64,000 nt of DNA from a virus (taxonomy: Duplodnaviria; Heunggongvirae; Uroviricota; Caudoviricetes). The position numbers were made by a program, and so were the translations under genes. The notes beneath the pieces were generated by a model, which worked only from the letters and a program-made list of their open reading frames with translations, was not told the origin of the DNA and did no database searches. The stretch lies in the IMG/VR virus record IMGVR_UViG_2744054962_000001, one strand, 5' to 3'. Below are positions 17,271-59,506 of the stretch, one piece after another (within the stretch, counting starts at the first letter, position 1; each line of letters begins with the position of its first letter).

Positions 17271-17293
17271 ATAATAAGTAAGTGATTACTTAG
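17271..17293. promoter_or_regulatory. ATAAGTA-family motif (palindromic TAAGTAA-GTGA-TTACTTA) in divergent promoter region
   Basis: Between helicase (-) and ParB-like operon (+); member of repeated ATAAGTA motif family. Confidence 0.5.
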
Positions 17294-17310
17294 TGGATTG
17301 TAGCAATAAA

Positions 17311-17991
17311 ATGGATGTAAAAATCACGATTTTGCAGGTTGATGTTGCCAACCTTCGCCCGAATACCTGGAACACCAATTCGGTTGGTGCGCAGAATTTT
17401 GAAAAACTGAAAGGTTCTATCGAAAAATTGGGCTTTTTTAAGCCAATTTTGGCTCGTGAACTTGAAGATGGATTTTTTGAAATCCTCGGCGGCGAACATC
17501 GCTGGCGTGCCGCTATTGAGCAAGGAATTTCAACGGTTCCAGTGCTTTCTGTGGGCAAAATTAGCGATGTCGTAGCTAAACAGATGTCACTGGTGGACAA
17601 CGAGCGATACGGTGAAGACGACCAAATCGCATTGCAACGCTTCATTGAAGAAATTCAGTCAGAACTTGACTATCAACTGTCTGAAATCGCCCCGTATGAC
17701 GACGAAATCTCGATGGTTTTAGCAAAAGAGGCGGCAATCGACCTTGAAGCACTGGAGGCGTTGTCTCGTGGTAGTGATGAGCCTGTCGATACCGACAAAC
17801 GAGAGAAAACCGAACGTGTGGGGGCGGAACATCAGACCATGCGCTTCAAAGTAACTTTCGATGCGTCAGATCGCGTTGCAGAAACCATAAAAAACATCAT
17901 CAAAGAGCAGGCTATTAACACCGGTAATGAAATGGAGAACGCTGGTGAGGCTCTGGTGTGGCTGGTCGACTACTACAAGGAGCGTATGTAA
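17311..17991 (+). CDS. ParB-like nuclease-domain protein 1
   Basis: ParB/Srx-type N-terminal domain (GGEHRWRAA); ATG 17311 preferred over track GTG 17293. Confidence 0.65.
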   Translation: MDVKITILQVDVANLRPNTWNTNSVGAQNFEKLKGSIEKLGFFKPILARELEDGFFEILGGEHRWRAAIEQGISTVPVLSVGKISDVVAKQMSLVDNERYGEDDQIALQRFIEEIQSELDYQLSEIAPYDDEISMVLAKEAAIDLEALEALSRGSDEPVDTDKREKTERVGAEHQTMRFKVTFDASDRVAETIKNIIKEQAINTGNEMENAGEALVWLVDYYKERM

Positions 17992-18659
17992 TGACCAAAA
18001 AGTTTGAAATCGTATATCGCGACCCGGCAGATCTTATTCCCTATGAGATGAATGCCAAAAAGCATGATGAACAGCAGATCCGAGATCTAGCCGCAGCCAT
18101 TAAAAAGCGCGGATTTGACCAGCCAATTACGGTCGATAAGAACGACGTAATTATTACTGGCCACGGCCGCCGTGAGGCTGCAATTTTTGCTGGACTTGAG
18201 CGCGTACCGGTTATTGTTCGCGATGATCTCAGTGATGACGAGGTTCGTGCGAAGCGCCTTGAAGATAACCGACTTGCCAGCATTGATTACGATGCAATTA
18301 AGCTACAGAAAGAGCTTGAGTCGCTTGTTCTGGACGATATCGAGGTTTTCGGCTTTGAAGAGCGTGAGTTGAATGTTCTCGTTGGCAGCATGACAGAAGA
18401 AATGGACACCGACTCGCTAGTTATCGATCTTGGCGAAGAAACTAAACGACAGAAGGATGAACACACCGAGATCAGTCGTGAAGTTGCAGCGGAAGAAGTA
18501 CGTGTTGTCGACGTATTGGGCTTTAAAACGCTTCCTGCTGGCTCTGCCATTGTTGTTGGTGATTTGCTTGCCCACATGGAAGAAATGACGGGAGAAAGCG
18601 GGGTAGACGCATTTGTGGCATATGCGGAGAAGATCTCTTCCGGGGAGATGGCTGCATGA
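17958..18659 (+). CDS. ParB-like nuclease-domain protein 2
   Basis: Second ParB-type N-terminal domain (ITGHGRREAA); overlaps upstream gene by 34 nt; acidic C-terminal half. Confidence 0.6.
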   Translation: MAGRLLQGAYVMTKKFEIVYRDPADLIPYEMNAKKHDEQQIRDLAAAIKKRGFDQPITVDKNDVIITGHGRREAAIFAGLERVPVIVRDDLSDDEVRAKRLEDNRLASIDYDAIKLQKELESLVLDDIEVFGFEERELNVLVGSMTEEMDTDSLVIDLGEETKRQKDEHTEISREVAAEEVRVVDVLGFKTLPAGSAIVVGDLLAHMEEMTGESGVDAFVAYAEKISSGEMAA

Positions 18660-19321
18660 GCAAATACATCATCAACGTATCGTTTCAGACACGCGTAAAT
18701 AAAACCACGCGCACGTTGGAAATCGCTGAGTCGTTCGGGCTTGGCCTGGACGAAAAAGAGTGGACGCTTTACGACAATCTGGAGCTGGAAGTGAAGCAGG
18801 GCGATGTGGTGTACATCACCGGCCAATCCGGTTCCGGCAAATCAGTTGTGCTGCGCGAGTTGCAACGACAGATGAAGGATGAAGGGCTGTCTGTAGCCTC
18901 CATCGATGATTTTACCTTCGATAATGAGGTTAACGTCATCGATCAGTTGGGCAAAACGACCAGCGATGCGCTTGGGTTGTTATCTATGGCTGGTCTGAAC
19001 GATGCATATCTGTTTGTTCGCAAGCCTTCTGAAATGTCAGACGGTCAGAAATATCGTCTCAAGATTGCCAAACTGATTGAGTCAGGCGCTAAAGTGTGGG
19101 CTGCTGACGAGTTCGGTGCTGTTCTAGACCGTGTAACCGCTCAGGTTGTGGCATCTAACCTCCAGCGTGCCGCTCGAAAGGTTGGTGCAACGGTAATGGT
19201 GGCGACGACTCACGAAGACCTGAAGAACGCGCTGCGCCCGGATATGCAGATCACCAAGCACTACAAAGAACGCGTGAAGGTGGAATATCACAATGGTAGT
19301 CATGATGAGGTTCATTTATGA
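18656..19321 (+). CDS. Stand-alone ABC-type ATPase domain protein
   Basis: Walker A GQSGSGKS, signature MSDGQKYRL, Walker B VWAADEF, H-loop TTHEDL; ATGA overlap with neighbours. Confidence 0.75.
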   Translation: MSKYIINVSFQTRVNKTTRTLEIAESFGLGLDEKEWTLYDNLELEVKQGDVVYITGQSGSGKSVVLRELQRQMKDEGLSVASIDDFTFDNEVNVIDQLGKTTSDALGLLSMAGLNDAYLFVRKPSEMSDGQKYRLKIAKLIESGAKVWAADEFGAVLDRVTAQVVASNLQRAARKVGATVMVATTHEDLKNALRPDMQITKHYKERVKVEYHNGSHDEVHL

Positions 19322-20208
19322 CGGACATCATCATTAAACGCTACCGCCCTGAAGAGTTTCCGCGTCATCTGGACTTTCTGGAGCGAATGACTGTCACAAA
19401 GGGAACTGTAGAGGACTGGTACGCTCTTAAGTCGCTTCACTACAAAACAGACGGCAAACCTTTCGCGCCAACTTACTATCGCTGCGAACTTGATGACCGT
19501 CTGGTGGGCGTCGTGGTTATGGCTTACCCGAAACTACTGCTGGCACCTCGCCACCGCATGTTTCCTAAGTTGAAACCAACCACTAATACCACCGTGGCTA
19601 ACCAGTACTGGGGTCGGTACGTGAATAACAACTTTGCGGTGATCAGTCGCTCAGTTGTGGATACTCAGTATCGTGGCGTAGGCGTCTCTTATCGAATGAT
19701 TAACCTGGTTAGCAGGATGCATGACCGGCCAATCATTGAGATCCAGTCCTCGATGAGCAAATACAATCCCTTCGCCATGAAAGCAGGGTTTAAGTTCATC
19801 CGCCCTGAGCGACCGAAGAGCTATGAAAGTGCACTGCGTGTATTCCAGCGCCATTTCCGTTCCGACCCGGGTGATAACGAGGCGATCGTCAAAGAGTTGT
19901 TCGCAATGAGCGAGTCTCGTCGTCGCCGTGCACTGCGTGATCTGGTGGCGGACTACCACAAGAACAGTTCCCTGGCAAAAGCTGGGCGGAATCGTGGCAC
20001 GACGATTCAGGACATTGCCGACAGTCTGGTGGACGAGGCCAGCATTGTGAAGCTGCTCAAGGACATTCACAACCTGAGCTTTACGTCTCCGTTGTATGGT
20101 GTGTACCGAAACCCTGACTTTGGTCGTCGACTGCCTGACACGCTGCCACTGCTGGCATTCGACAAACAACCTTTGGATAAACCGTTAGAAATTGCTTTAC
20201 CGGCATAA
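19318..20208 (+). CDS. Hypothetical protein with weak GNAT-like motif (296 aa)
   Basis: YRGVGVSYRMINLV resembles GNAT motif A; ATGA overlap with ABC ATPase gene. Confidence 0.45.
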   Translation: MTDIIIKRYRPEEFPRHLDFLERMTVTKGTVEDWYALKSLHYKTDGKPFAPTYYRCELDDRLVGVVVMAYPKLLLAPRHRMFPKLKPTTNTTVANQYWGRYVNNNFAVISRSVVDTQYRGVGVSYRMINLVSRMHDRPIIEIQSSMSKYNPFAMKAGFKFIRPERPKSYESALRVFQRHFRSDPGDNEAIVKELFAMSESRRRRALRDLVADYHKNSSLAKAGRNRGTTIQDIADSLVDEASIVKLLKDIHNLSFTSPLYGVYRNPDFGRRLPDTLPLLAFDKQPLDKPLEIALPA

Positions 20209-20217
20209 GGATTTGCC

Positions 20218-20484
20218 ATGACGTTAACCGATAAACAAAAGGACATCATCAAAACGCTCAATCTCGGTTATGAGCGAGGTCATTTACTTGATCTGGACGA
20301 ATTGCTTGAAGTTTTGCCGTACAAGACAACCAAGCAAAGTATCCAGTTCTCAATTCGCGCTCTGATAAAAAAGGGGCTGGTGGAGAAAGGGCATACGCGC
20401 CAACGCAGTGACAATCGCTATCACCGCCGAACTCTTGGGTTAACCACTTTAGGTCGAGCCAAAGCGAAGTTACTGGTGATGTAA
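20218..20484 (+). CDS. Small basic protein, possible winged-helix DNA binder (88 aa)
   Basis: AAGGA RBS; K/R-rich; fold assignment tentative. Confidence 0.4.
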   Translation: MTLTDKQKDIIKTLNLGYERGHLLDLDELLEVLPYKTTKQSIQFSIRALIKKGLVEKGHTRQRSDNRYHRRTLGLTTLGRAKAKLLVM

Positions 20485-20508
20485 TCGGTCTGGGAGCTTA
20501 TTTAAAGA

Positions 20509-20565
20509 CCTGCTTCTGTATATATAAATAATAAGTAACTTATTAAATATATATACGGAAGCAGG
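20509..20565. repeat. ~57-bp AT-rich imperfect palindrome, copy A
   Basis: CCTGCTTC arms (rc GAAGCAGG) flank core AATAAGTAACTTATT; ~95% identical copy in opposite orientation at 51170-51224. Confidence 0.8.
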
Positions 20566-20601
20566 CTTAATAAGACATGCCAGACCTAATTAAACACCCC
20601 A

Positions 20602-20642
20602 GAAAACAAGTTGGTTAGCAGATGCAGTAAACAAGTTGTTTT
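20602..20642 (+). promoter_or_regulatory. Two tandem operator palindromes upstream of terminase genes
   Basis: GAAAACAAGTTGGTT at 20602 and AAACAAGTTGTTT (perfect) at 20629. Confidence 0.55.
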
Positions 20643-20681
20643 AGAGCGCATGGACGCGCTCTGTGTGTTTTAGAGGGATCT

Positions 20682-21314
20682 ATGACGGTCGAAAAAGACG
20701 AGGTAAAAACTCGCCTGACACCAGCGGAGTGGGCCGAAGCTGAAGCCAAATGGACGTCAGGCGAATATACACTCTCAAAGCTGGAGGAAGAGTACGGCAT
20801 TCGTCGTGAAACACTCTCCAGACATTTCAAAAAGCGAGGATTAGAGAAAGGCGCGGACTCTGTTGGGAAGATGGTTCGTGAGTCTCTTAAATCTGACGCA
20901 GAGCTTCGCGCTAAAGCCCGTGCGGAAAAGATAGAAGAACGTCGTACACGTTATGACGGCTGGGCGTATGCGTTGGGGCAGATGGTGATGGTCGAAGTCA
21001 CTACGGCCAAACGTGAGGGTAAGCCTTTAGGGGCGATTGAGGATTCTCTCAAGAGCTTACAGAGAGCCAGTAATACCCTTGCAAAATGCTTTGAAGTTTC
21101 GTCCAAAGCATTGGGCATGGATCATGCGGAAAATGACGAGGAAGAAATTCCGAACCTGGTATTTGGTGAGCTTACGCCTTCCCAGGTGGCGAAATTACGT
21201 CAGGAAGACGACGAGCCTGAAATCATCGATGACGAATTGCTTGAGACGTTGGAAGAAGAAGCTCTAAGCGAATTTGATGCGACAGATGATGGAAGTGAAG
21301 GGGAGGACGAATAA
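20682..21314 (+). CDS. Terminase small subunit (putative)
   Basis: N-terminal HTH-like segment, acidic C-terminus, directly upstream of TerL with overlapping stop/start. Confidence 0.55.
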   Translation: MTVEKDEVKTRLTPAEWAEAEAKWTSGEYTLSKLEEEYGIRRETLSRHFKKRGLEKGADSVGKMVRESLKSDAELRAKARAEKIEERRTRYDGWAYALGQMVMVEVTTAKREGKPLGAIEDSLKSLQRASNTLAKCFEVSSKALGMDHAENDEEEIPNLVFGELTPSQVAKLRQEDDEPEIIDDELLETLEEEALSEFDATDDGSEGEDE

Positions 21315-22570: not shown

Positions 22571-22583
22571 GTAAGTAATTATC
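22566..22583 (+). promoter_or_regulatory. ATAAGTA-family promoter-like motif
   Basis: GATAGGTAAGTAATTATC, 14 nt upstream of portal ATG. Confidence 0.45.
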
Positions 22584-22596
22584 TAAGGTTATTCAA

Positions 22597-24171
22597 ATGG
22601 AATTGAACGACAAACAAATTAAGGATCTGGTGGCGCGACGCCACCCGGAATACGAAAAGAAAAAAGAACATTGGGACTTCCTCGCCAGCACTTACGCTGG
22701 CGGGCGTGGTTGGTTTACAGACAATATCTTTCGTTACTTTAAAGAGGGAGATCAGGAGTTTAAGGAGCGAGTTGAACGTGCTTATCGCTTCAACCACACT
22801 CGTGAGGTGGTAAACCTCATCAACAAATATCTCTTTAAAGAAGACATTCATAGAAATATCGAAGAGGCACCAGAGCAGATCCGCAATTTCTGGAAACGTG
22901 CGACTCGCCAGAATGCCTCTATTGACTCATTTATGGCCGCTATTGATTTGCAGTCGTCTATTTACGGTCGCATATGGGTTGTTGTCGATAGCACGATGAG
23001 TGGTGATGTTGAGTCAGTAGCTGACGAGAAAAAGAAAGATGCTCGCGCCTACGCCTACTGGATTTCACCTCAGCAAATGCTGGATGTGGCATGGGACGAC
23101 GACGGGAATATGTTATGGGCGTTAATTGTGGAAGTCGCTCGCGATGACGCAGATCCTTTTACTTCTACAGGTCAGGAATACCAACGTTATCGTCTGTGGA
23201 CACAAAACGAGTGGTATCTGTTCCGTGAGGAAGTGAAGAAGGGCGCTGGTGGAGCAGGTCGCCGTCAGGCAAAAGTTATTTTAGAGGATAGCGGTGAGCA
23301 TAATCTCGGCGTAGTTCCTGTGTTTCCTGTTGATTGTATTGGAGAAAGTGAATCACCGTATTTCAGCCCATCGTTGATCGATGATATCGCTTATCTTGAT
23401 CGTGCGGTTGCAAACTATCTGTCAAACCTTGATGCCATTATTCAGGATCAGACATTTAGCCAGTTGGCTATACCAGTACAGTCGCTTTTACCTGGTGATG
23501 AAAACCACACTAAAGTGCTTGAAATGGGCACAAAGCGAGTCTTCACCTACGATTCTGAAGGTGGAAACCAGCCGTTTTATCTGTCACCAGACCCGAAACA
23601 AGCTCAGATGATCATCACTACGATTAAGACGGTGATTAACGAAATCTACCATTCAGTTGGTGTAGCTGGTGAGCGAACGAAGCAGGACAACGCACAGGGA
23701 ATCGATAACTCATCTGGTGCCGCAAAAATGTATGACTTCCAGCGTGTAAATAGCTTGCTTGTCACAAAAGCAGAGCGTCTGGAAAGGGCTGAACGCCAAA
23801 TCATGCTACTGGTTGCGAAATGGATGGGGGTAGATCTGGACGAAGACCACTCTTTAATTGCGTATCCAGAAAGTTTCGATATTCGTGGCCTTACTGATGA
23901 ATTTTCTGTTGCCGAGAAACTGTCATTACTTCAGGCACCGGACTCTGTACGTCGTCACCAGATGGAAATGCTTATTGAGAAGATTTTCCCGAACATTACT
24001 GAGGCGATGAAAAAGGAATTTGATAAAGATCTCTTGAATTTTCCGCCAAAAAATGATCTAAATACTCTTGAAAATAAGTCAGTACTTACTTATGATCAAG
24101 GCGCAGCCCAAGAAAGCGGGCAAGATCAACCCCGAGGGAATGGGGACTCATCTACTCAAGAGAACGAGTGA
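22597..24171 (+). CDS. Portal protein
   Basis: 524 aa immediately after TerL; AAGG RBS. Confidence 0.75.
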   Translation: MELNDKQIKDLVARRHPEYEKKKEHWDFLASTYAGGRGWFTDNIFRYFKEGDQEFKERVERAYRFNHTREVVNLINKYLFKEDIHRNIEEAPEQIRNFWKRATRQNASIDSFMAAIDLQSSIYGRIWVVVDSTMSGDVESVADEKKKDARAYAYWISPQQMLDVAWDDDGNMLWALIVEVARDDADPFTSTGQEYQRYRLWTQNEWYLFREEVKKGAGGAGRRQAKVILEDSGEHNLGVVPVFPVDCIGESESPYFSPSLIDDIAYLDRAVANYLSNLDAIIQDQTFSQLAIPVQSLLPGDENHTKVLEMGTKRVFTYDSEGGNQPFYLSPDPKQAQMIITTIKTVINEIYHSVGVAGERTKQDNAQGIDNSSGAAKMYDFQRVNSLLVTKAERLERAERQIMLLVAKWMGVDLDEDHSLIAYPESFDIRGLTDEFSVAEKLSLLQAPDSVRRHQMEMLIEKIFPNITEAMKKEFDKDLLNFPPKNDLNTLENKSVLTYDQGAAQESGQDQPRGNGDSSTQENE

Positions 24172-24192
24172 TAAGTAACAAAGGGAATTTTT

Positions 24193-25080: not shown

Positions 25081-25105
25081 CATCTAAATCAAAGGGAATT
25101 GATAG

Positions 25106-25981: not shown

Positions 25982-25991
25982 TCAGTGCAGT

Positions 25992-26009
25992 AGATAAGTA
26001 ATTATCTAT
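25992..26009 (+). promoter_or_regulatory. ATAAGTA-family motif (TAGATAAGTAATTATCTA)
   Basis: Palindromic copy of motif between capsid stop and terminator. Confidence 0.45.
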
Positions 26010-26013
26010 GTTA

Positions 26014-26042
26014 AAGGGTGGGCTATACGCCCACCCTTTTTG
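26014..26042 (+). terminator. Rho-independent terminator after major capsid gene
   Basis: GGGTGGGC-TATAC-GCCCACCC followed by TTTTT. Confidence 0.75.
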
Positions 26043-26054
26043 TAGGAGCAAGAA

Positions 26055-26975: not shown

Positions 26976-27019
26976 CCGATATTGGGCGGCTTTCGCCGCC
27001 CAAGTGGAGAGAAAGCGTT

Positions 27020-29176: not shown

Positions 29177-29560
29177 GTGTTTATTGAAGCGTTTGCAAGT
29201 TTGATGCAGAAGGCAAAGATTGGCACGGTCGGGACTGACATTTTCTGTCACTACTTGCCTGCCAATGTGAAATCTGGCGTCCTGCTTATTAACCCAAATA
29301 CCGGTATCAGCATCGATCATGAGCTACAGGGCTTTTACCACGAATCATTCACAATAATTGTGCGTGGTTCGTCAATTACTACGACGGTTGAGAAAGCCAA
29401 TAAAATCATTGAGATGTTTCCAGTAGAGGAAACGGAATCTGGTGGTGTTTATTTTCGACTTGTACGACCGATGGCGATGCCAATCATTTATCCCAAAAAT
29501 GATGGGGCATTAATAGAAGCAGGCATTCCTGTTGAATTTGCTGGCTATTTATTGAATTAA
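29177..29560 (+). CDS. Tail completion protein (hypothetical), GTG start
   Basis: GAGAGG RBS 5 nt before GTG 29177; track start 29054 overlaps preceding gene. Confidence 0.4.
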   Translation: MFIEAFASLMQKAKIGTVGTDIFCHYLPANVKSGVLLINPNTGISIDHELQGFYHESFTIIVRGSSITTTVEKANKIIEMFPVEETESGGVYFRLVRPMAMPIIYPKNDGALIEAGIPVEFAGYLLN

Positions 29561-29567
29561 CTCAATT

Positions 29568-29584
29568 GGTAAGTATATACTTAC
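29568..29584 (+). promoter_or_regulatory. ATAAGTA-family motif (GGTAAGTATATACTTAC palindrome)
   Basis: Upstream of major tail gene. Confidence 0.45.
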
Positions 29585-36067: not shown

Positions 36068-36073
36068 GTATCT

Positions 36074-36096
36074 GGATAAGTAAGTACTAATTTACT
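36074..36096 (+). promoter_or_regulatory. ATAAGTA-family motif
   Basis: GGATAAGTAAGTACTAATTTACT upstream of gpL-like gene. Confidence 0.45.
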
Positions 36097-36149
36097 ATCA
36101 TTGTGGCGCTGACAGGATGCTAGCGCCTACTTATTTCAAGGATGAAACA

Positions 36150-46263: not shown

Positions 46264-46286
46264 GATAGGTAAGTGCATACCTATAT
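46264..46286 (+). promoter_or_regulatory. ATAAGTA-family motif (ATAGGTA..TACCTAT inverted repeat)
   Basis: Upstream of lysis cassette. Confidence 0.45.
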
Positions 46287-48319: not shown

Positions 48320-48326
48320 GAGTAAA

Positions 48327-49942: not shown

Positions 49943-49945
49943 TAA

Positions 49946-49978
49946 TGTGGGCTGTCTAGCCCACATTATTTTAATTAA
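49946..49978 (+). terminator. Rho-independent terminator
   Basis: TAATGTGGGC-TGTC-TAGCCCACATTA followed by TTTTAATT. Confidence 0.6.
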
Positions 49979-49993
49979 AGTGGAGTGATAATT

Positions 49994-51161: not shown

Positions 51162-51169
51162 TTTAATTA

Positions 51170-51224
51170 CCTGTTTCTGTATATAAATAATAAGTAACTT
51201 ATTAAATATATATACGGAAGCAGG
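51170..51224. repeat. ~55-bp AT-rich imperfect palindrome, copy B
   Basis: CCTGTTTCTGTATATAAATAATAAGTAACTTATTAAATATATATACGGAAGCAGG; flanking TTAAAGAC indicates inverted orientation relative to copy A. Confidence 0.8.
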
Positions 51225-51307
51225 TCTTTTAAAAGACACCCACCAGAACAACTCCCTTCCGTTTCCACTTCCAAAAACTGCCACCAGTCGCTATCATCCG
51301 CTCATTG

Positions 51308-51330
51308 TGATAAGTAAGTAACTACCTACC
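51308..51330 (+). promoter_or_regulatory. ATAAGTA-family motif
   Basis: TGATAAGTAAGTAACTACCTACC upstream of 51342 gene. Confidence 0.45.
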
Positions 51331-51341
51331 AGGTGAGCCAC

Positions 51342-52082: not shown

Positions 52083-52091
52083 CTAATACTA

Positions 52092-52106
52092 GAAAACAAT
52101 TTGTTT
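52092..52106. promoter_or_regulatory. Operator palindrome GAAAACAATTTGTTT upstream of helicase gene
   Basis: Member of AAACAAnTTGTTT family, 20 nt before ATG 52126. Confidence 0.55.
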
Positions 52107-52125
52107 AAAAAACAAAGGAAAGCAC

Positions 52126-53466: not shown

Positions 53467-53473
53467 AAAATAA

Positions 53474-53494
53474 GCGTGGAGAACACCTCCACGC
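53474..53494 (+). terminator. Hairpin after helicase gene
   Basis: GCGTGGAG-AACAC-CTCCACGC; lies inside the N-terminal extension of track ORF 53476. Confidence 0.5.
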
Positions 53495-53547
53495 TTGATT
53501 CATTGGTGAAACAACTTTTCTTTTGCCAAACCACAAAAGAAAAACAC

Positions 53548-54729: not shown

Positions 54730-54730
54730 T

Positions 54731-55828
54731 TTAAGTTGTGGGAGACAGACGGTTCAGGACAAACGCTGCGATATTATTTAGTGCTATATTTAGCAAACTT
54801 GCATCATATGTTTGGTCGTTATCCTTAGGTTTAAAATTGCTGATACTGACTGTCTCACTGTGCTCATTTTCATAGAAACGTTTACTGCTTGAATCTAGGC
54901 GTTTGAGGACGTAAATTTGCCCAAATTCAATCCACTCACCTTCACCATTGAGTCCGCTCCCTGTTTTGACTGAGATGAAGTACTTTGCCAGCTTGGTTGT
55001 AATGCAGTCTTCATTTTTTTCTATGCAAACCTTAATGCCGGCGGCTTTCAAACTACGATAAATGCTGTTTGGATATGCCCCACTATAGATTTCGCTGCTT
55101 TCAATGATAATGACGTCGTATTCTTCCTTTGGCTCAATAGATAAAGCTTCAGGCTCCAAATCATCCTTGTGAAAAATAAATCCTAAAAGACGCTCAAGTT
55201 CATCTGTTAATTTGAACATGGGGTTCGCTTGGATCTCGCCAGCCCTGTCTTCGTAGACGAGCCCCGAGGTTATGAGCTTATTTAGCGATCTCAGAGCCAT
55301 TCCACTTTTTTGTGATGTGAGGCTAACTTGGGCTAATACAGTTGATTTATAGCCTTTTATTGGCGAGCTTGTTGTGATGTAAAGTTTGCGCGCATATTCA
55401 ATATCAAAGCAGGTTAACCCACTCAGTATGTGGATAAAAAATAGTTTTTCATCGTCGTTAAGGCTGCTGCGGGCTAGGCTTACCGTCAAGCGAATGTAGT
55501 ATTCTGTTTTCTTGTCTTCATCATCAAGCACGAGCTTTTTGACTAACGCCGAAAAGTGTTCTCTTGAGATATCGACCTCATCGTCGCAAATTTCACCAAT
55601 GCCCATAATGTAACGGTTGAATCGATCACGACAAGTCGTCGCATTTATCTCTGAGAACAACGTGAACATTTTTTCCGCTGCCTCAATATGAGGTCCAACA
55701 AGCGGTATAGATTTGGCAAACGCCAAACCAGTTTCTTTCAATACCTTCCTGTGTTGCATCACGTTTTTGGACAACGTTGTCATAGACCTAAGCCTTGTGT
55801 GTTTAACGTATGAGTTAAGTGAAATCAT
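54731..55828 (-). CDS. Hypothetical protein (365 aa), AT-rich, convergent with primase
   Basis: Opposite orientation to flanking replication genes; stop 2 nt from primase stop; alternative start ATG 55783. Confidence 0.55.
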   Translation of the reverse strand: MISLNSYVKHTRLRSMTTLSKNVMQHRKVLKETGLAFAKSIPLVGPHIEAAEKMFTLFSEINATTCRDRFNRYIMGIGEICDDEVDISREHFSALVKKLVLDDEDKKTEYYIRLTVSLARSSLNDDEKLFFIHILSGLTCFDIEYARKLYITTSSPIKGYKSTVLAQVSLTSQKSGMALRSLNKLITSGLVYEDRAGEIQANPMFKLTDELERLLGFIFHKDDLEPEALSIEPKEEYDVIIIESSEIYSGAYPNSIYRSLKAAGIKVCIEKNEDCITTKLAKYFISVKTGSGLNGEGEWIEFGQIYVLKRLDSSSKRFYENEHSETVSISNFKPKDNDQTYDASLLNIALNNIAAFVLNRLSPTT

Positions 55829-55900
55829 ATAGAAGTGACCTGACAGCTACAACTGGACAAGATTAAGAGCATTTTTTATAAACGAAAATAAACGCCTACA

Positions 55901-55925
55901 TTGATAAGTAGATACATACTTATAT
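55901..55925 (+). promoter_or_regulatory. ATAAGTA-family motif (ATAAGTA..TACTTAT inverted repeat)
   Basis: TTGATAAGTAGATACATACTTATAT upstream of 55967. Confidence 0.45.
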
Positions 55926-55966
55926 TTCTGTAAGAATATGCTCGACGAAGGAATTGAGGAACCTTT

Positions 55967-56761
55967 ATGAAAGCAGATATTCAGAAGTCCGTTACCGAAA
56001 TCATCGACAAATCAGGCGTAGAAATTGATACAGAAGAGCGCCAGAAGATTATCGATGAGGCGATCCAGACTGCGCTGGAGCACATCGCCACGTCTGTGAG
56101 CACCGCACCTCTTTCGGAAGGCTCGAAATACATGCGGGTCTGGGTTCGTTTTGGGGAGTCCCCGGAGCTGCCTGGTGTTAAACAGAAACGCGCGGCACTC
56201 GTGGCGTTCACTCGCAAAATGAAGGACGCAACGGTCGAAGTACGCGCCGGTGCATGGTACGACGGTCGCGTTGTCTACACCAATCAGGCAGTGTGCGATG
56301 AAGGTGAACGGTTTGAGGAAATTGTCGACGCGACTCTTCGCGCGATCAAAGGCAGGGCTGGCGTAGAGGATGATCCTTCTATCGCGGCGTTCCTGAGCAT
56401 TGTCGAACTGCCTGAAGTTACCGAACGCGTTACAGATCTGACAACCCCACCTGGTTTGCTGGAGTTGGTGGTCAGTGGCGATACCAAAAAAGCCGTTGAG
56501 CGCATTCGTGAGGTGGAATACGGCATCATCTGCGATATGTGCCGCAGCGACTTAGACCTGGTGCGCATCATTGTCGACGCGGGTCAGACATGTGACGGTG
56601 TGCTCGCCAGTTTTGCAGGGCAGGTGGCACGCCTGGCCAACGAGCTGCCGATGATTAAACAGGAGGCAAAATCCTACGCCGTCCACCATGCCAACGATTT
56701 ACTGGAACCATACCGGTTCGAAGCCGCTCAGGACAAAATGACTGGCTGGGCTACCTGGTAA
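55967..56761 (+). CDS. Hypothetical protein (264 aa)
   Basis: GAGGA RBS; strong terminator follows. Confidence 0.55.
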   Translation: MKADIQKSVTEIIDKSGVEIDTEERQKIIDEAIQTALEHIATSVSTAPLSEGSKYMRVWVRFGESPELPGVKQKRAALVAFTRKMKDATVEVRAGAWYDGRVVYTNQAVCDEGERFEEIVDATLRAIKGRAGVEDDPSIAAFLSIVELPEVTERVTDLTTPPGLLELVVSGDTKKAVERIREVEYGIICDMCRSDLDLVRIIVDAGQTCDGVLASFAGQVARLANELPMIKQEAKSYAVHHANDLLEPYRFEAAQDKMTGWATW

Positions 56762-56779
56762 GCCTTGATAAACCATTTA

Positions 56780-56800
56780 GCCCCCTGGTGGGGCTTTTTT
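56780..56800 (+). terminator. Rho-independent terminator
   Basis: GCCCCC-TGGT-GGGGC followed by TTTTTT. Confidence 0.7.
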
Positions 56801-56810
56801 AAACTGCGCT

Positions 56811-56834
56811 CAATAAGTAAGTACACGACTACGG
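56811..56834 (+). promoter_or_regulatory. ATAAGTA-family motif
   Basis: CAATAAGTAAGTACACGACTACGG after terminator, before 56843. Confidence 0.45.
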
Positions 56835-56842
56835 TTAGAAGC

Positions 56843-57307
56843 ATGTCCACAAAAACAGATTTGTCGAAAATCCCGTCTATCTCCGGAAACAACGGTTATT
56901 CGCTGCGCTGTCAGGAAGTGAAGATCAACGGCCATGAGGCCCATTGCAGCTATACAGTCTGCCAGCACACCATCCTCGCCTACAAAGAGAAGCGTCTCCC
57001 AGCGACATCGTTCCAGTCCTGCGCTGCGGCCATTGCTGCTGGAAAATGCCAGGCGCTGAAGATGATGGTCGAAGAGATCCGCAAAGGCGAACAGCTCTAC
57101 TTCATCGATATGGCTACGCTTATCAAAGAAGTGGAAGAGCAAAACGACCACGCCAGAACGCTTACCCGGAAGCGCAACACCATGACGATTCAACGCACGA
57201 AGAAAACAGAACCAGCCAAACCCGAAACCACGTCCACCGATTCACTGGCGCCTGTCACTGACGTGTACGCGGCACTCATTGAAGAAGCAACCAAAGAAAA
57301 CACATGA
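56843..57307 (+). CDS. Hypothetical protein (154 aa) with Cys/His cluster
   Basis: HEAHCSYTVCQH segment; start after terminator and promoter motif (track start 56765). Confidence 0.45.
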   Translation: MSTKTDLSKIPSISGNNGYSLRCQEVKINGHEAHCSYTVCQHTILAYKEKRLPATSFQSCAAAIAAGKCQALKMMVEEIRKGEQLYFIDMATLIKEVEEQNDHARTLTRKRNTMTIQRTKKTEPAKPETTSTDSLAPVTDVYAALIEEATKENT

Positions 57308-57341
57308 AAACTCCCGAGCGACCGATGGAGGTTAAACACTA

Positions 57342-58664
57342 ATGGAAAAACTGATCGCCCTAAAGCACAAGCTGGATGCCATAAAAACGATGGGAACCAA
57401 CGCCAAAAAAGAGGCGCTGGCCAACCTTGATAAATTTGAGCAGAGCATGGTCTCGCTAATGCTCAACCCATTCATTCGATTCGGTGTGAAGAAGTACAAA
57501 GTGGTCGAGCCACTCGATACTTCCGTACCCATCGACCAGAAGGTAGTCGAGCTGCTGGAGAAGCTGGCGGCGCGCGAACTGACCGGGAACGCGGCCATTA
57601 CTGCTGTTGAGTCTATCGTGGCGTCAATGTGCGCCGATGGGCAGGACGTGTTCCGTCGTTTCCTCTTAAAAGACCCAAAAGCGGGTGTTGGGATTAGCCT
57701 ATGCAACAAGGTTTTTGAAAATCCCATTCCGAAATTCGAGGTGCAGCTGGCGTCACCGTATAAAGAAAAAGGCGACAAATACCCCTTCAAGCCAAACCCT
57801 AAAGCAAAATGGCCTATGATTGGCAGCCTTAAGCTCGATGGTTTGCGAGTAATTTGCGAGGTTATTGTTGACGAAGAAGAGGTTAACTTCCTTTCTCGTA
57901 CTGGTAATCCAATCACGTCTCTCGATCACCTAAAGCCAGCCATGCTCGAATTAGGCAAACTTTCAGGCCACAAACACATCTTCTTCGATGGTGAAGGAAC
58001 TGCCGGTTCATTTAACCAGTCCGTATCTGCATTGCGCAAAAAGAACGTGCAGGCAATTGGCGCTATTTATCATGTTTTCGACTTCTTCCTACCGGAATGG
58101 CGGGCACAGGCTAAATCCAAAGAGTATGCAAAGACAGGTATGAAGCTGAAAGAGCGCCTGGCTATTCTCGTGGCGTTGTTCAAAAACGATCGCAGTGAAG
58201 GCTACGCACAAGACATTCACCTGCATCCGTTCTATATCATCCATAGCCACGAAGACTTCATCGAACGCTTCATGAAACGCCTGGACGATAACGAAGAAGG
58301 GGAGATGGGCAAAGATCCGAACTCTGTTTACGAGTTTAAACGTACCCGCAGCTGGTGGAAGTTAAAAGACGAAGATTCAGAAGATGGTGAAATTATCGAT
58401 TTTGAGCCGGGCGATCCGGACTCTGGTTTTGCCAACACGCTTGGAAAAATTGTTATTCGTCTTGAAAACGGCGTCATCGTTCGTGCGAGCGGTATTAAGC
58501 ATAAATATCTGGACGAGATCTGGAACAACAAAGAGAAGTACCGTGGTCGTATTGTTGAGGTTCATTGTCACGAGAAAACACTGGATGGCAGCTTACGCCA
58601 CCCCCGACTGAAATGGCCGCGTTGCTTACGCGATACAGAAGATCGAATCGGAGATAAAGAATGA
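57342..58664 (+). CDS. ATP-dependent DNA ligase
   Basis: Adenylation motif I KLDGLR; motif III-like FFDGEG; GGAGG RBS. Confidence 0.8.
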   Translation: MEKLIALKHKLDAIKTMGTNAKKEALANLDKFEQSMVSLMLNPFIRFGVKKYKVVEPLDTSVPIDQKVVELLEKLAARELTGNAAITAVESIVASMCADGQDVFRRFLLKDPKAGVGISLCNKVFENPIPKFEVQLASPYKEKGDKYPFKPNPKAKWPMIGSLKLDGLRVICEVIVDEEEVNFLSRTGNPITSLDHLKPAMLELGKLSGHKHIFFDGEGTAGSFNQSVSALRKKNVQAIGAIYHVFDFFLPEWRAQAKSKEYAKTGMKLKERLAILVALFKNDRSEGYAQDIHLHPFYIIHSHEDFIERFMKRLDDNEEGEMGKDPNSVYEFKRTRSWWKLKDEDSEDGEIIDFEPGDPDSGFANTLGKIVIRLENGVIVRASGIKHKYLDEIWNNKEKYRGRIVEVHCHEKTLDGSLRHPRLKWPRCLRDTEDRIGDKE

Positions 58665-58840
58665 TGCTCGGCTGGATGATTGCATTTTTAGCAGTTGGTT
58701 TTTTCATAGGTATTGTGGTGATGTCCAGTTGCATTAATGACTACATTAAAAACGGTGTTATAGAAAGACGCGGTCGCATTTATCGCATTGTAGAAATAAC
58801 CAACACCGTGAAGGAGATTAAGGATGATCGTATTAAGTAA
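58661..58840 (+). CDS. Small single-pass membrane protein (59 aa)
   Basis: ATGA overlap with ligase stop; GGAG RBS; TM helix then RGRIYRIVEIT motif; paralogue at 59036. Confidence 0.45.
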   Translation: MMLGWMIAFLAVGFFIGIVVMSSCINDYIKNGVIERRGRIYRIVEITNTVKEIKDDRIK

Positions 58841-59039
58841 ACGGGAGAAGGAAACGCTTCATGAAATCAGTAAGTGGCCGGAGTTCCCTGAGTACTGGAA
58901 GCCTAAAACGCGAGCTAAGTTAGAGCGGTTAGGGTTGGTTGCAAACGTTTCTGAAACGAAGTGTTCGGCCAACTACCAGTTAACTGATAAAGGGAAAGTA
59001 TTGCTACAGCAATTAGTAGAATCAGGAGTGTTAAAATGA
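58824..59039 (+). CDS. Hypothetical protein (71 aa)
   Basis: AAGGAG RBS; overlaps 3' end of 58661..58840 in another frame. Confidence 0.45.
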   Translation: MIVLSKREKETLHEISKWPEFPEYWKPKTRAKLERLGLVANVSETKCSANYQLTDKGKVLLQQLVESGVLK

Positions 59040-59188
59040 TTCCATACATCTCATTAGCTTTTATGGGTGGCTTCCTTATCGGCTTCGGCATCTGTCGTGA
59101 TTTAATTAAGCAGGAACTTAAAACCAAAACACTGTGCATCGGAAAGCGTGTGTATCGGGTAGTTCATGAAACAAAGGTTAGAAAATGA
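59036..59188 (+). CDS. Small single-pass membrane protein (50 aa), paralogue of 58661..58840
   Basis: ATGA overlap with upstream stop; AGGAG RBS; TM helix then GKRVYRVVHET motif. Confidence 0.4.
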   Translation: MIPYISLAFMGGFLIGFGICRDLIKQELKTKTLCIGKRVYRVVHETKVRK

Positions 59189-59475
59189 GCAATTTAACTT
59201 CTTGGGACTGGTGGTTGGCCACCTATTTCTTAGCGGCCGGAGTCGCATTCGCCTTTTACGTAGGTCAGTTAGTCGTAAAACTGTTGCTGATTAAATTTGC
59301 CAGTCATAAACGTATCGATGATGGTCTGTGGCGTCTTGGCACCCTGGTGGAAACTCGCTACGGGCAACTTAAGGAGAACGAAACCATTACTATCCAAGCG
59401 AAACGATTCACTGCCACCATCACAAGAACACCTAGTCGTAGAGTGGCCTTGATCAAAAAAGTCACAACCGAATAA
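59185..59475 (+). CDS. Small membrane protein (96 aa)
   Basis: ATGA overlap with upstream gene; N-terminal TM helix. Confidence 0.45.
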   Translation: MSNLTSWDWWLATYFLAAGVAFAFYVGQLVVKLLLIKFASHKRIDDGLWRLGTLVETRYGQLKENETITIQAKRFTATITRTPSRRVALIKKVTTE

Positions 59476-59483
59476 AAACATAT

Positions 59484-59506
59484 CGATAAGTATTTACTTA
59501 CTTATC
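59484..59506 (+). promoter_or_regulatory. ATAAGTA-family motif (GATAAGTATTTACTTACTTATC)
   Basis: Palindromic copy at start of the non-coding leader that precedes the tRNA cluster. Confidence 0.45.

Follow-up and report, generated by a model that had tools for sequence, protein, structure and literature searches.

A dispersed palindrome as the predicted operator of the lysogeny repressor in an SSU5/pHCM2-type phage-plasmid

What reads the short word ATAAGTA that recurs at gene boundaries throughout a 64,000-nucleotide stretch of phage DNA (the whole stretch analysed, referred to as the window)? The window element is an SSU5/pHCM2-type phage-plasmid. The original prediction took the word to mark either a phage-specific promoter class or a binding site for a phage transcription factor upstream of middle and late transcription units.

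ATAAGTA occurs 18 times in the window compared to 5.75 expected, and none of 100 shuffles reached 18. ATARGTARGTA with no more than one mismatch was seen 15 times (2.0 expected), and a 20-mer consensus with up to five mismatches gave 16 matches versus 0.37 in Markov shuffles. All 11 intergenic sites first listed were found at their coordinates. The word is thus real and enriched, but it was mis-delimited: it represents only the better-conserved upstream half of a 20–24-bp imperfect palindrome, (TG)ATARGTAAGT-ACTTACYTAT(CA), in whose copies the upstream and downstream halves carry 66 and 98 mismatches, respectively. PWM matches on opposite strands pair at a spacing of 19 nt, the palindrome centre is often GTAC, and information content reaches background within about 3 bp outside the palindrome. 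The palindrome is specific to the phage family of the window element. It occurs 12 times in the window, and relatives have about 22–28 copies per ~105-kb genome. The sites and the candidate binder are collected in Table 1.

Table 1. Predicted operators and repressor features in the window
Feature	Coordinates	Strand	Context
Operator palindrome ATAAGTAAGTGATTACTTAG	17274..17293	.	82-bp divergent region between UvsW-like helicase (minus) and first ParB-N gene (ATG 17311); 3 mismatches, left half perfect
Operator palindrome ATAGGTAAGTAATTATCTAA	22567..22586	.	terL–portal junction; contains terL stop codon TAG; ends 10 nt before portal ATG 22597
Near-perfect operator ATAAGTCAGTACTTACTTAT	24074..24093	.	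Within portal gene 3' end; absent from original prediction; occupies 17-bp spacer of σ70-like promoter TTGAAA-17-TATGAT (24068–24096) aimed at next gene (ATG 24193)
Operator variant, core AGATAAGTAATTATCT	25990..26009	.	9 nt past MCP stop codon; then intrinsic terminator (stem from 26016, T-run to about 26042) and decoration gene
Operator ATTGGTAAGTATATACTTAC	29565..29584	.	5 nt past tail-completion gene stop, 5' of major tail gene; overlaps σ70-like promoter TTGAAT-18-TATACT (29552–29581)
Operator ATAAGTAAGTACTAATTTAC	36076..36095	.	Between gpM (stop 36067) and gpL (ATG 36117); overlaps σ70-like promoter TGGATA-17-TATCAT (36073–36101)
Operator ATAGGTAGGTACTAACTTAA	42428..42447	.	Between gpJ (stop 42397) and tail fibre gene (ATG 42491); σ70 promoter not recognisable
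Operator ATAGGTAAGTGCATACCTAT	46265..46284	.	5' of holin/lysis cassette (ORF from 46335)
Operator ATAAGTAAGTAACTACCTAC	51310..51329	.	Ends 12 nt before ATG 51342, first gene of helicase/primase block
Operator ATAAGTAGATACATACTTAT	55904..55923	.	Divergent region, 5' of gene at 55967; -10-like TGTAAGAAT 8 nt downstream
Half-operator	56813..56832	.	After terminator (56779–56795 plus T-run) and 10 nt before ATG 56843; left half perfect, right half 5 mismatches
Operator ATAAGTATTTACTTACTTAT	59486..59505	.	11 nt past upstream stop codon; then -10-like TATAAGAT; next annotated genes are three tRNAs (60254–60501)
Predicted autoregulatory operator, core GGTAAGTGCTTACC (63838–63851)	63835..63854	.	Absent from original prediction
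Possible weak member ATTGTAAGTACATACTTACG	8891..8910	.	PWM 12.3
Candidate binder, 128-aa XRE/Cro-C1-type HTH repressor	63420..63806	-	CYRAN_45 orthologue
Predicted σ70 promoter of repressor gene, TTTACA-16-TAATAT	63853..63880	-	One of only two matches in scan of 62000–64000

Several look-alikes were set aside. The cores at 20531 and 51191, initially counted as members, belong to a separate ~57-bp AT-rich palindrome and score only about 10, compared to 25–29 for true sites. Lone ATAAGTA words at 13431, 43995, and 61312, all in coding or other sequence, fail to score as family members, and the one at 62283 sits within a LexA-box-like palindrome. A word similar to the weak member is present in SSU5 at 93165.

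The two half-sites match the consensus independently. Among 69 distinct 20-mers, mirrored positions form Watson–Crick pairs as often as independence predicts, and positions 4/17 are GC in 20, AT in 16, AC in 14, and GT in 13. Sense-strand G·U and A·C combinations number 50 and 40 across the site set. Orthologous sites are not independent, which makes the half-site p-values and the promoter-orientation p-value given below optimistic. Independent halves that lack covariation indicate a probable target for a protein dimer on double-stranded DNA rather than a hairpin. A hairpin in the mRNA would control processing, stability, or translation, and the FljA-family protein encoded at 12986–13510 (minus strand) might bind it. 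The sites are transcribed intercistronic palindromes, some abutting ribosome-binding sites, and the FljA-family protein (PF03614, E=9e-81) is conserved and lysogen-expressed; FljA proteins act post-transcriptionally on fliC mRNA (PMC2652032). This explanation is nevertheless highly improbable. Covariation and a sense-strand preference for G·U over A·C are both missing, the R/Y positions of near-perfect sites often form A·C, and the sequence itself is conserved rather than pairing alone. The start codon may be as little as 1 nt or as much as about 150 nt away, the sites match no Rfam family, and one copy is located at a promoter start instead of between cistrons.

No fixed-register -35 or -10 element was found in the site flanks. 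About a quarter to a third of the sites overlap a gene-oriented σ70-like promoter. Overlapping promoters with a score of at least 9 occur in the gene sense at 28 sites and in the antisense at 8, the corresponding numbers for a score of at least 10 are 10 and 0, and gene-sense scores exceed antisense scores (Wilcoxon p=0.003). The modal -10 starts at site position 17–18, which places the site centre near -19.5, and the spacers have a normal length of 16–18 bp. The near-perfect site in the portal gene is identical in sequence across Cyrano, SSU5, and pJN2-26. The promoter overlap at part of the sites means that the link to transcription-unit starts is real, and where a σ70-like promoter overlaps, the conserved word is an operator inside the promoter and not the promoter itself.

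The main option of the original prediction, a promoter class that a phage-specific sigma factor or RNA polymerase would recognise, is largely refuted by this architecture and retains almost no probability. As expected of such a class, the motif is enriched, lies between genes, and shares their orientation, and distant Acinetobacter relatives encode a σ70-family protein. However, the element is palindromic and has no partner element in fixed register, and neither annotation nor searches revealed a phage RNA polymerase or sigma factor in the window, Cyrano, or SSU5. Some sites run into stop codons or ribosome-binding sites, several leave only 1–12 nt to the next start codon, a terminator comes after one of them, and the motif changes between lineages that share the same host polymerase. 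The other proposal, a binding site for a phage transcription factor, is supported by a sequence-specific palindrome that has independent halves and is confined to one phage family. Portal, decoration, major tail, gpL, fibre, holin, and replication genes are preceded by sites as predicted, but "middle and late" was too narrow a description. The palindrome precedes replication and nucleotide-metabolism genes besides late genes, and complete relatives also have sites 5' of SSB, sbcD, nrdA, thyX, dam, and parB-like genes.

The candidate binder is the XRE/Cro-C1-type protein encoded close to the window end. Its Pfam HTH_19 match is below threshold; its structure model has a pLDDT of ~88 over residues 10–80, and the predicted XRE/Cro-C1 fold resembles P22 c2, 434, SinR, HigA, and Stl. 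The protein lacks a peptidase domain. A LexA box 5' of the convergent integrase gene provides one lead to the route of repressor inactivation. The repressor and portal genes co-occur at about 1:1 in PLSDB, and the 55 database homologues of the repressor, among contigs long enough to tell, are mostly on contigs of ~100–116 kb. The predicted repressor promoter is followed immediately by GGTAAGYRCTTACC, and the palindrome core covers the predicted transcription start. The view that the motif is distinct from the early operator is not supported by this arrangement. A six-lineage alignment shows that the block TGTAATATC-GGTAAGCACTTACC-AGAGA at this promoter is invariant or nearly so. Promoter and core are kept in E. 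coli, Klebsiella, S. Typhi pHCM2, Y. pestis pMT1, Cronobacter, and Enterobacter, despite only 56–69% identity among the repressor proteins.

Four diverged lineages have four different palindromes at the same junctions, each beside a diverged repressor allele. The Enterobacterales palindrome has TAAG-TAAG words, and the repressor HTH segment is nearly invariant across this order, which has the operator in common. The Aeromonas palindrome is TCAG-TAAG (19 sites versus 0.07 expected). Acinetobacter, where the HTH segment differs by K-N to K-R, has TCAG-TCAG in subgroup 1 (24 sites with up to four mismatches; 33 with up to six, versus 2.45 in shuffles) and TTAG-TAAGC in subgroup 2 (30 sites versus 0.4). 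The presence of two different motifs in one host species excludes a host factor as the binder. The UvsW/ParB-N junction holds the lineage-specific palindrome in Acinetobacter (69363, 12302) and Aeromonas (97522), and a site is present at the terL–portal junction of SSU5, Klebsiella, both Acinetobacter subgroups, and Aeromonas. Upstream of the subgroup 1 repressor are three full-length but degenerate copies. For the subgroup 2 repressor, a full site lies 770 bp upstream; two words resembling half-sites are closer, and the spacer of a candidate promoter contains one degenerate copy. In Aeromonas, the palindrome upstream of the CYRAN_45 homologue (27% identity) is only a weak one with 7 mismatches, and a good site is located 14 nt upstream of another HTH gene.

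Other DNA-binding proteins of the element also diverge, the ParB-like proteins among them, so the repressor is not alone in covarying with the motif. The two ParB-N proteins (17293–18659) could use the palindromes as a dispersed centromere, for KorB-like silencing, or for DNA packaging. Dispersed ParB-type sites are known to affect transcription in RK2 KorB and N15. The ParB_N domains are confirmed, the palindrome has a parS-like size, and a site is directly 5' of the ParB-like operon in all four lineages. We consider this role improbable. Lysogen counts for the two ParB-like genes are 5.0 and 9.5, which is background (median 9.8), and their products thus cannot silence genes or partition the plasmid there; the genes lie within the terminase-proximal late block, and the lysogen-expressed ParA has its own partner genes elsewhere. 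Between the Acinetobacter subgroups, where the motif changes, the ParB-like proteins are 52–64% identical compared to 26% for the repressor.

A DNA transaction apart from transcription, such as replication priming, recombination hot spots, or nicking/modification targets, would suit many dispersed copies with a frequent GTAC centre in an element that encodes T4-like recombination and replication proteins and several methyltransferases. It is very improbable in view of the strictly gene-boundary placement, with the same syntenic junctions used in elements whose portal proteins are only 52–56% identical. The conserved copy at the repressor promoter and the significant gene-sense promoter association also argue against it, and the central GTAC is not kept in Aeromonas or Acinetobacter subgroup 2.

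Published lysogen RNA-seq of Cyrano, a 97–98% identical relative, was used to examine expression (PMC9928086 S1 Table). The repressor is expressed (96 counts). Genes downstream of sites are silent, with a median of 8.5 compared to 10.5 for the others (one-sided MWU p=0.0095). More than 30 counts were recorded for 1 of 20 genes downstream of sites and 21 of 103 others, a modest contrast (Fisher p=0.084) given that most element genes are silent with or without a preceding site. Expression falls 8.8-, 5.0-, and 4.2-fold across sites that have an expressed upstream gene, the 8.8-fold fall being at the junction of site 51310..51329. CYRAN_34 has 44 counts despite a site upstream, and counts of 46–114 were recorded for the helicase operon, which runs divergently from site 17274.

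A phage lytic-growth factor, either an activator or Cro-like, could also bind the palindromes alone or in competition with the repressor. The candidates are a small wHTH protein (20218–20484), a 71-aa regulator (58824–59039), and the repressor-divergent gene just past the window end. SSU5, which was isolated as a phage, lacks the integrase–repressor module and retains about 28 good sites, many lytic units are headed by sites, and a subset of sites has a -10-like hexamer and a poor -35, as in activator-dependent promoters. The stronger conservation of the upstream half and the good Aeromonas site before a different HTH gene point the same way. High-quality sites in SSU5 likewise fit an essential lytic-phase function. 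On balance a lytic-growth factor is an unlikely explanation. The modal site centre within the promoter spacer is the position of a repressor and not of a class I/II activator, several sites leave too little space for transcription to start beyond them, and in one case a terminator comes next. Six lineages keep the copy that covers the promoter start of the repressor gene, which is expressed in the lysogen, and the candidate lytic regulators are silent there.

The best explanation, with a probability of roughly 0.6, is that the palindromes are dispersed operators of the element's lysogeny repressor that keep its lytic genes silent. The link between repressor and sites is circumstantial, and we infer binding by this particular protein, repression through binding, and the roadblock component. 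In the plasmid-prophage state, a repressor dimer would bind the palindromes. At a quarter to a third of the sites, repressor bound in the spacer or over the -10 would occlude host RNA polymerase. At sites with no recognisable promoter (such as terL–portal, J–fibre, and those abutting ribosome-binding sites), it would form a roadblock that stops read-through, or anchor cooperative binding. The order of site then terminator past the MCP gene is shared by SSU5, Klebsiella, and Acinetobacter, making four lineages; a site directly before a terminator has no obvious use for a simple repressor. The copy over the repressor promoter start would confer negative autoregulation, and all units would be released together if the repressor were lost or inactivated. 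Such a dispersed operator network appears to be undescribed for the SSU5/pHCM2-type family. SSU5, which has no repressor but keeps the sites, resembles D29, a lytic phage that lost its repressor (PMC6550527). The proposed network would work like the P1 C1 operators, the φC31 CIRs, and the L5 stoperators.

The window covers 64 kb of a phage-plasmid of the SSU5/pHCM2 type. It is 98% identical to Escherichia phage CMS-2020a and 97–98% identical to phage Cyrano, the plasmid prophage of E. coli LF82. Salmonella phage SSU5 is 81–84% identical and Klebsiella elements (e.g. pJN2-26) are ~78% identical. The gene map of the window was derived from annotated relatives. The left part carries a helicase operon on the minus strand, followed on the plus strand by the ParB-like genes, terminase, head, tail, fibre, lysis, ParA, helicase/primase, ligase and tRNA genes, and the right end holds the integrase and a convergent HTH "putative repressor".

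Coordinates of the features discussed (window positions)
Feature	Position	Strand	Description
LexA-box candidate	1608-1623		CTGTATGGATGAACAG; 21 nt upstream of the S24 peptidase gene
S24 peptidase gene	1644-2033		129 aa, S24 peptidase domain only, UmuD-like, Pfam E=4e-10
FljA-family "repressor of phase-1 flagellin"	12986–13510	minus	full-length, PF03614 E=9e-81
Large palindrome, first copy	20509–20565		upstream of terS
Promoter with embedded operator	24068–24096		TTGAAA-17-TATGAT
Operator 24074	24074–24093		near-perfect copy inside the portal gene 3′ end
Lone left half-site	24171-24180		(T)GATAAGTAAC; overlaps the portal stop codon
Large palindrome, second copy	~51168–51225		upstream of the helicase block
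Stretch lacking a convincing protein gene	59506-60253		~750 nt between operator 59486 and the tRNA cluster
tRNA-Asn/Thr/Ser cluster	60254–60501
CYRAN_43 orthologue	61500-62054	minus	184-aa hypothetical protein, no Pfam match
σ70-like promoter of the CYRAN_43 orthologue strand	62106–62077	minus	TTGGTA-18-TATACT
Strong LexA-box-like palindrome	62276-62295		TACTGTTTACTTATACAGTA; immediately ahead of the integrase gene
Integrase gene	62322–63425	plus	convergent with the repressor gene, which its 3′ end overlaps
Repressor gene	63420–63806	minus	128-aa HTH protein; orthologue CYRAN_45, 96 counts in the lysogen
Predicted repressor promoter	63880–63853	minus	TTTACA-16-TAATAT; scan tool, one of two matches in 2 kb
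Half-site-like words	63897-63911, 63955-63965		TTTCGATAGGCACTT and ATAGGTAAGAA; repressor-divergent region

The original prediction described an ATAAGTA-family motif ahead of most middle and late transcription units. All of the sites it listed were found, and ATAAGTA is enriched (18 copies against 5.75 expected). The extended form ATARGTARGTA occurs 15 times with at most one mismatch (2.0 expected), almost always between genes and on the gene strand. A position weight matrix (PWM) built from the sites gave plus- and minus-strand matches that pair 19 nt apart, and thus the true unit is a 20-bp imperfect palindrome (ATARGTAAGT-ACTTACYTAT) that is often longer (TGATA…TATCA). The motif is therefore real, but what had been seen is only the better-conserved upstream half of the palindrome; a better upstream half is only weakly favored (32 vs 20 sites). 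Allowing at most five mismatches, the window contains 16 matches, compared with 0.37 in Markov shuffles. Twelve of these are strong, and the remainder include two large palindromes and one core-only copy at 63835. Eleven of the 12 sites fall between genes, and from the remaining one it is ~100 nt to the next gene downstream. The near-perfect operator 24074 was absent from the original list. Complete relatives carry ~22 (Cyrano) and ~25–28 (SSU5) sites, some Klebsiella copies are perfect palindromes, and perfect copies in IMG/VR occur only in SSU5-like contigs. These elements thus carry a dispersed, genome-wide array of one short motif whose copy number is far above chance. The term "middle and late" is too narrow for this array because sites in the relatives also precede SSB, sbcD, nrdA, thyX, dam and the ParB-like operon. 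The lone half-site at the end of the portal gene follows operator 24074 at a distance of 78 nt, and the next ATG comes 13 nt after it.

The cores of the two large palindromes had been counted with the family, and they are removed from it by their low PWM scores and different architecture. They are ~57-bp AT-rich palindromes with GC clamps (CCTGCTTCTGTATATATAAATAATAAGT and ACTTATTAAATATATATACGGAAGCAGG) and 28-nt arms that are 89% complementary. Two or three copies occupy the same places in relatives. Possible roles are those of an origin, a bidirectional terminator or a site related to packaging.

Pairing across the dyad distinguishes a protein site from a folded nucleic acid. Among 69 distinct 20-mers, Watson–Crick pairs at all 10 mirrored positions occur at the independence expectation. 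The variable R/Y position has counts of GC 20, AT 16, AC 14 and GT 13, and on the sense strand G·U is not favored (50 vs 40 for A·C). Each half thus matches the consensus separately. Such independence is characteristic of double-stranded DNA sites bound by a protein dimer and would not be expected of a hairpin. The sites are transcribed palindromes between genes, which speaks for an RNA element, but compensatory changes are lacking, G·U is not preferred and an Rfam search of the palindrome matched no family; an RNA element is very improbable. A non-transcriptional function of the palindromes in the DNA is also improbable, and the DNA hairpin fails on the same missing covariation. Another idea was that (TAAG)n repeats act as a three-frame stop signal, with the R positions retaining TAA or TAG. 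It was discarded as the function because Acinetobacter TCAGTCAGT lacks this property at the same junctions and because the palindrome is left unexplained. Three-frame stops probably contribute to keeping the sites out of coding sequence.

The proposal that the motif defines a phage-specific promoter class is not supported, and of the readings weighed here it is the least probable. Information content falls to background within ~3 bp on either side in an alignment of 62 sites with their flanks, showing that there is no −35 or −10 element at a fixed register. Site 22567 contains the terL stop codon, and 10 nt separate its end from the portal ATG. The corresponding gap is 12 nt at site 51310 and, measured to annotated starts, 1–2 nt at sites in Cyrano. 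The site after the major capsid protein gene (25990) is followed directly by an intrinsic terminator and then by the decoration gene, an order shared with SSU5, Klebsiella and Acinetobacter. Judged from these annotated positions, several sites leave no room for a downstream transcription start. Neither Cyrano nor SSU5 has an annotated phage sigma factor or RNA polymerase, and tblastn with a σ70-family protein from Acinetobacter relatives found no homologue in the window, Cyrano, SSU5 or Aeromonas. The σ70-family genes of the Acinetobacter relatives adjoin MoxR/CobT genes (L057 23090-23755, which is NZ_CP059543.1 73090-73755, and L047 18130-18798), and the copies of the two subgroups are 27% identical to each other.

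σ70-like promoters do nevertheless overlap a subset of the sites. The antisense direction was used as the matched control for a promoter scan because the site is palindromic. Across 105 sites from six genomes, overlapping σ70-like −35/−10 pairs are better in the gene-sense direction, with a score of at least 9 in 28 vs 8 and of at least 10 in 10 vs 0 (Wilcoxon p=0.003; orthologous sites are non-independent, which makes the p-values of site statistics optimistic). The modal −10 starts at site position 17–18, and the σ70-like matches fall in several different registers. In promoter-embedded sites, such as operator 24074, the palindrome fills the spacer and is centered near −19.5, where a bound repressor would occlude the promoter. 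Promoter association holds for about a quarter to a third of the sites, and approximately two-thirds lack a good σ70 promoter. The latter, some of which are inside operons (terL|portal), are compatible with a roadblock to transcription.

Published RNA-seq counts of the Cyrano lysogen (PMC9928086 S1 Table) were used to compare genes with and without sites. The 20 genes directly downstream of sites have a median of 8.5 counts compared to 10.5 for the other 103 (one-sided Mann–Whitney p=0.0095), and 1 of 20 exceeds 30 counts compared to 21 of 103 (Fisher p=0.084). This contrast is modest because most of the element is silent anyway. Where the upstream gene is expressed, counts drop across the site by 8.8-fold (CYRAN_30 to 31), 5.0-fold (34 to 35) and 4.2-fold (64 to 65). 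The genes that are expressed in the lysogen, among them the toxin–antitoxin pairs, ParA, RepA, integrase and the S24 peptidase, have no site. The sites thus lie at lytic-gene and operon boundaries and are absent from prophage-expressed genes, the exceptions being the repressor itself and the helicase operon divergent from site 17274.

Two further lysogen transcripts were noted. CYRAN_43 is the top transcript by far, with ~7084 counts (723-fold above background), and a σ70-like promoter lies on the strand of its window orthologue. The region overlapping the tRNA genes, "CYRAN_40", has 151 counts. A −10-like TATAAGAT follows operator 59486, so the tRNAs may have an operator-controlled promoter.

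Three candidate binders were found in the window: the FljA-family protein, two ParB-N proteins and the 128-aa HTH protein. The FljA-family protein is conserved in Cyrano, SSU5 and Klebsiella relatives, and lysogen transcripts of its gene stand at log2 ~7–8 in four of five conditions. The protein was set aside as the binder because fliC mRNA is the target of FljA proteins (PMC2652032) and the sites behave as double-stranded DNA half-sites. It is probably a moron that lowers translation of host flagellin. The two ParB-N genes are directly downstream of site 17274, and dispersed palindromes would suit ParB-like loading sites. A parS or KorB-OB array has a cognate ParB expressed in the plasmid state; here the orthologues CYRAN_119 and CYRAN_120 have 5.0 and 9.5 counts in the LF82 lysogen against a median of 9.8 (PMC9928086 S1 Table). 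Expression at background means that these proteins are not the silencers in the plasmid state, and ParB-like loading is accordingly a poor explanation. A host factor site (Fur, LexA or IHF, compared by eye) is excluded by the presence of two different palindromes within A. baumannii elements, that is, two motifs in one host species, and by the confinement of perfect IMG/VR copies to SSU5-like contigs.

The 128-aa HTH protein is the remaining candidate. A core palindrome, GGTAAGTGCTTACC, lies upstream of its gene, and the core GGTAAGYRCTTACC directly follows the −10 of the predicted TTTACA-16-TAATAT promoter, a position that covers the predicted transcription start of the repressor. When the region is aligned across E. 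coli, Klebsiella, S. Typhi pHCM2, Y. pestis pMT1, Cronobacter and Enterobacter, conservation is highest in this block of promoter and palindrome; the repressor proteins of the six lineages are only 56–69% identical. A copy in the control region of the repressor gene is therefore present in the window; in Aeromonas the evidence is weak. The repressor and portal genes co-occur at about 1:1 in PLSDB, with counts of 348/341 in Klebsiella, 230/204 in Escherichia, 92/91 in Enterobacter, 63/62 in Yersinia, 49/49 in Salmonella and, with an Acinetobacter query, 154/145 in Acinetobacter. Where the contig is long enough, the 55 database homologues of the repressor are mostly on ~100–116 kb contigs.

The AlphaFold model of the repressor has a pLDDT of 86–90 (~88) for residues 10–80 and predicts a five-helix XRE/Cro-C1 domain. 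The model superposes on the P22 c2–operator complex, 434 repressor, SinR, C.AhdI and HigA (1.5–1.9 Å over ~62 residues for C.AhdI, 434 repressor, P22 c2 and SinR; 1.6–1.9 Å over ~61 residues for the P22 c2 and 434 repressor domains). By sequence, the repressor scores 19.7 bits against Pfam HTH_19, below the 30.2 cut-off, and a PDB search returned no sequence relative. The HTH segment GYKNxNNLSLIKSGKIPLP is nearly invariant across the Enterobacterales, which share a common operator. The protein lacks an S24 cleavage domain. In SSU5, which was isolated as a phage, the integrase–repressor module is absent and the sites are kept. This arrangement recalls lytic D29, which arose by repressor loss (PMC6550527).

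Several observations concern the surroundings of the repressor gene. Of the half-site-like words in the repressor-divergent region, TTTCGATAGGCACTT is conserved in five lineages and reads AAGTGCCTATCGAAA on the repressor strand. The two words may serve as auxiliary operators of the divergent early promoter; the gene behind that promoter begins a little past the window end. CTGT-N8-ACAG occurs four times against 0.76 expected. A LexA-box-like palindrome lies ahead of the integrase gene, and transcription of that gene under SOS control could continue antisense into the repressor gene, a possible induction route for a repressor with no cleavage domain. The second LexA-box candidate precedes the S24 peptidase gene, and the Cyrano orthologue of that protein is well expressed in the lysogen, with 148 counts.

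An unbiased search for recurring inverted repeats was carried out in syntenic, distant relatives. The half-site ATARGTAAGT of the window and the Enterobacterales is replaced in Aeromonas pNY4622-IMP (58% GC) by ATCAGTAAG, which has 19 copies against 0.07 expected and accompanies a repressor with 27% identity to that of the window. A. baumannii p107 (subgroup 1) has ATCAGTCAGT, with 24 copies at ≤4 mismatches and 33 at ≤6 (2.45 in shuffled sequence), and a repressor 40% identical to that of the window. A. baumannii p3E-011922 (subgroup 2) has TATTAGTAAGC, with 30 copies against 0.4 and a repressor 26% identical to that of subgroup 1. The same junctions are occupied in all lineages: terL|portal, helicase|ParB, around the major capsid protein gene, before the major tail gene, nrdA/nrdB and thy. 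In the repressor control region, subgroup 1 has three degenerate family-type copies, subgroup 2 has a full site together with half-sites, and Aeromonas has just one weak copy.

Four motif variants thus accompany four repressor alleles (58%, 40% and 27% identical to the window protein), the motif changes together with the allele, and no cross-type sites were found among the lineages compared. Of the proteins compared between the Acinetobacter subgroups, none has diverged further than the repressor (26%), which sits beside a 98%-identical integrase; identities are 52–64% for ParB-like proteins and 55–79% for structural and replication proteins. The predicted recognition helix starts with K-N in the TAAG lineages and K-R in the TCAG-TCAG lineage. 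This covariation supports the assignment of the sites to the repressor as judged from sequence comparison, and it is not exclusive to the repressor because other proteins diverge too.

The best explanation for the palindromes is a dispersed operator network of the element's XRE-type lysogeny repressor, with a probability of about 0.6. Repressor binding, repression and the roadblock component are inferred; for direct binding and for derepression on loss of the repressor, the indirect support is the lysogen RNA-seq of Cyrano. A palindrome inside a σ70 promoter would let the repressor occlude that promoter, a palindrome elsewhere would have a roadblock or cooperative role, and the copy at the repressor's own promoter would confer negative autoregulation. 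A lytic-phase transcription factor could share the palindromic sites; their positions ahead of many lytic units and their retention in SSU5, which lacks the repressor, would accommodate it, the conserved copy at the repressor promoter and the modal position in the promoter spacer point to the repressor, and such a factor is unlikely. It nevertheless ranks first among the alternatives, followed by ParB-like loading, a non-transcriptional DNA function, an RNA element and the promoter class.

A broader reading is offered tentatively. The SSU5 supergroup, which includes S. Typhi pHCM2, Y. pestis pMT1 and AMR-carrying Klebsiella, E. coli and Acinetobacter elements, may be silenced genome-wide by a dimeric XRE repressor at ~25 palindromes, mostly outside promoters. 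This would be a Gram-negative palindromic counterpart of the mycobacteriophage stoperator that blocks elongation or nucleates a repressive complex. The four dialects would be immunity groups, with the helix-3 Asn to Arg change contributing to the A-to-C switch. If this is true, the TAAG-TAAG, TCAG-TAAG, TCAG-TCAG and TTAG-TAAGC groups would govern superinfection and the coexistence of elements.

SSU5-type elements are among the commonest phage-plasmids of the Enterobacterales and Acinetobacter, with ~950–1000 in PLSDB, often with resistance genes. The reviews searched describe no lysis–lysogeny circuit for them, and the literature search, which covered sources outside subscription, returned no account of the palindrome or of an SSU5-group repressor circuit. 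The analysis supplies a candidate master repressor, a predicted regulon map (12 sites plus the autoregulatory site), a predicted autoregulated promoter and four natural specificity variants. Immunity, superinfection exclusion and induction of SSU5-type elements become directly testable, the site map sharpens the annotation of transcription-unit boundaries, and the operator type could be a simple typing marker for immunity groups.

Dispersed operators are already known from P1, φC31 and L5, and the network described here is another case, not a new principle. P1 is a plasmid prophage with C1 operators scattered over its ~94-kb genome as asymmetric 17-bp sites, some overlapping replication or lytic promoters and one set at the immunity region; its late structural genes depend on the Lpa activator and are outside C1 control. 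The SSU5-type elements resemble P1 as plasmid prophages with many scattered operators. Unlike in P1, replication genes and structural/lysis genes have one and the same type of site ahead of them, and the repressor shows no sequence relationship to C1. The closest architectural match is the conserved inverted repeats (CIRs) of the Streptomyces phage φC31: an inverted repeat of ~17 bp recurs ~17–18 times between genes, mainly in the early region, and is recognised by the phage repressor, with one copy serving autoregulation of the repressor gene. φC31 and its host are unrelated to those described here, its repressor belongs to another family, and in the SSU5-type elements late operons are covered as well. 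RK2 KorB OB and N15 SopB sites are a dozen or fewer dispersed palindromes at varying promoter distances that serve silencing and maintenance, and their binder is a ParB-family protein expressed in the plasmid state, unlike the lysogen-silent ParB-N proteins found here. Lambdoid and P22-type XRE pairs share the palindromic operators overlapping promoters, the autoregulated repressor promoter and a superposable fold. Their operators are confined to two or three immunity-region clusters, in contrast to ~25 over the whole genome, and the repressor described here has no S24 cleavage domain.

The Cluster A mycobacteriophages L5 and Bxb1 have 20–30 repressor sites genome-wide, some in promoters and most not, and the motif diverges with the repressor among heteroimmune relatives (PMC6550527). 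The SSU5-type elements correspond in several ways: each genome has ~22–30 sites, of which about a quarter to a third are promoter-associated, four motifs go with four alleles, and one relative, SSU5, lacks the repressor. L5-type sites are 13 bp long and asymmetric, follow the direction of transcription and bind a monomeric repressor (PMC9283540, PMC6550527). The operators described here are 20–24-bp palindromes, which implies a dimer, and because of this symmetry they are not stoperators in the strict sense of asymmetric ~13-bp, oriented sites for a monomeric repressor. They differ from the L5 system further in the XRE-type fold of the candidate repressor, in the Gram-negative hosts and in belonging to a plasmid prophage.
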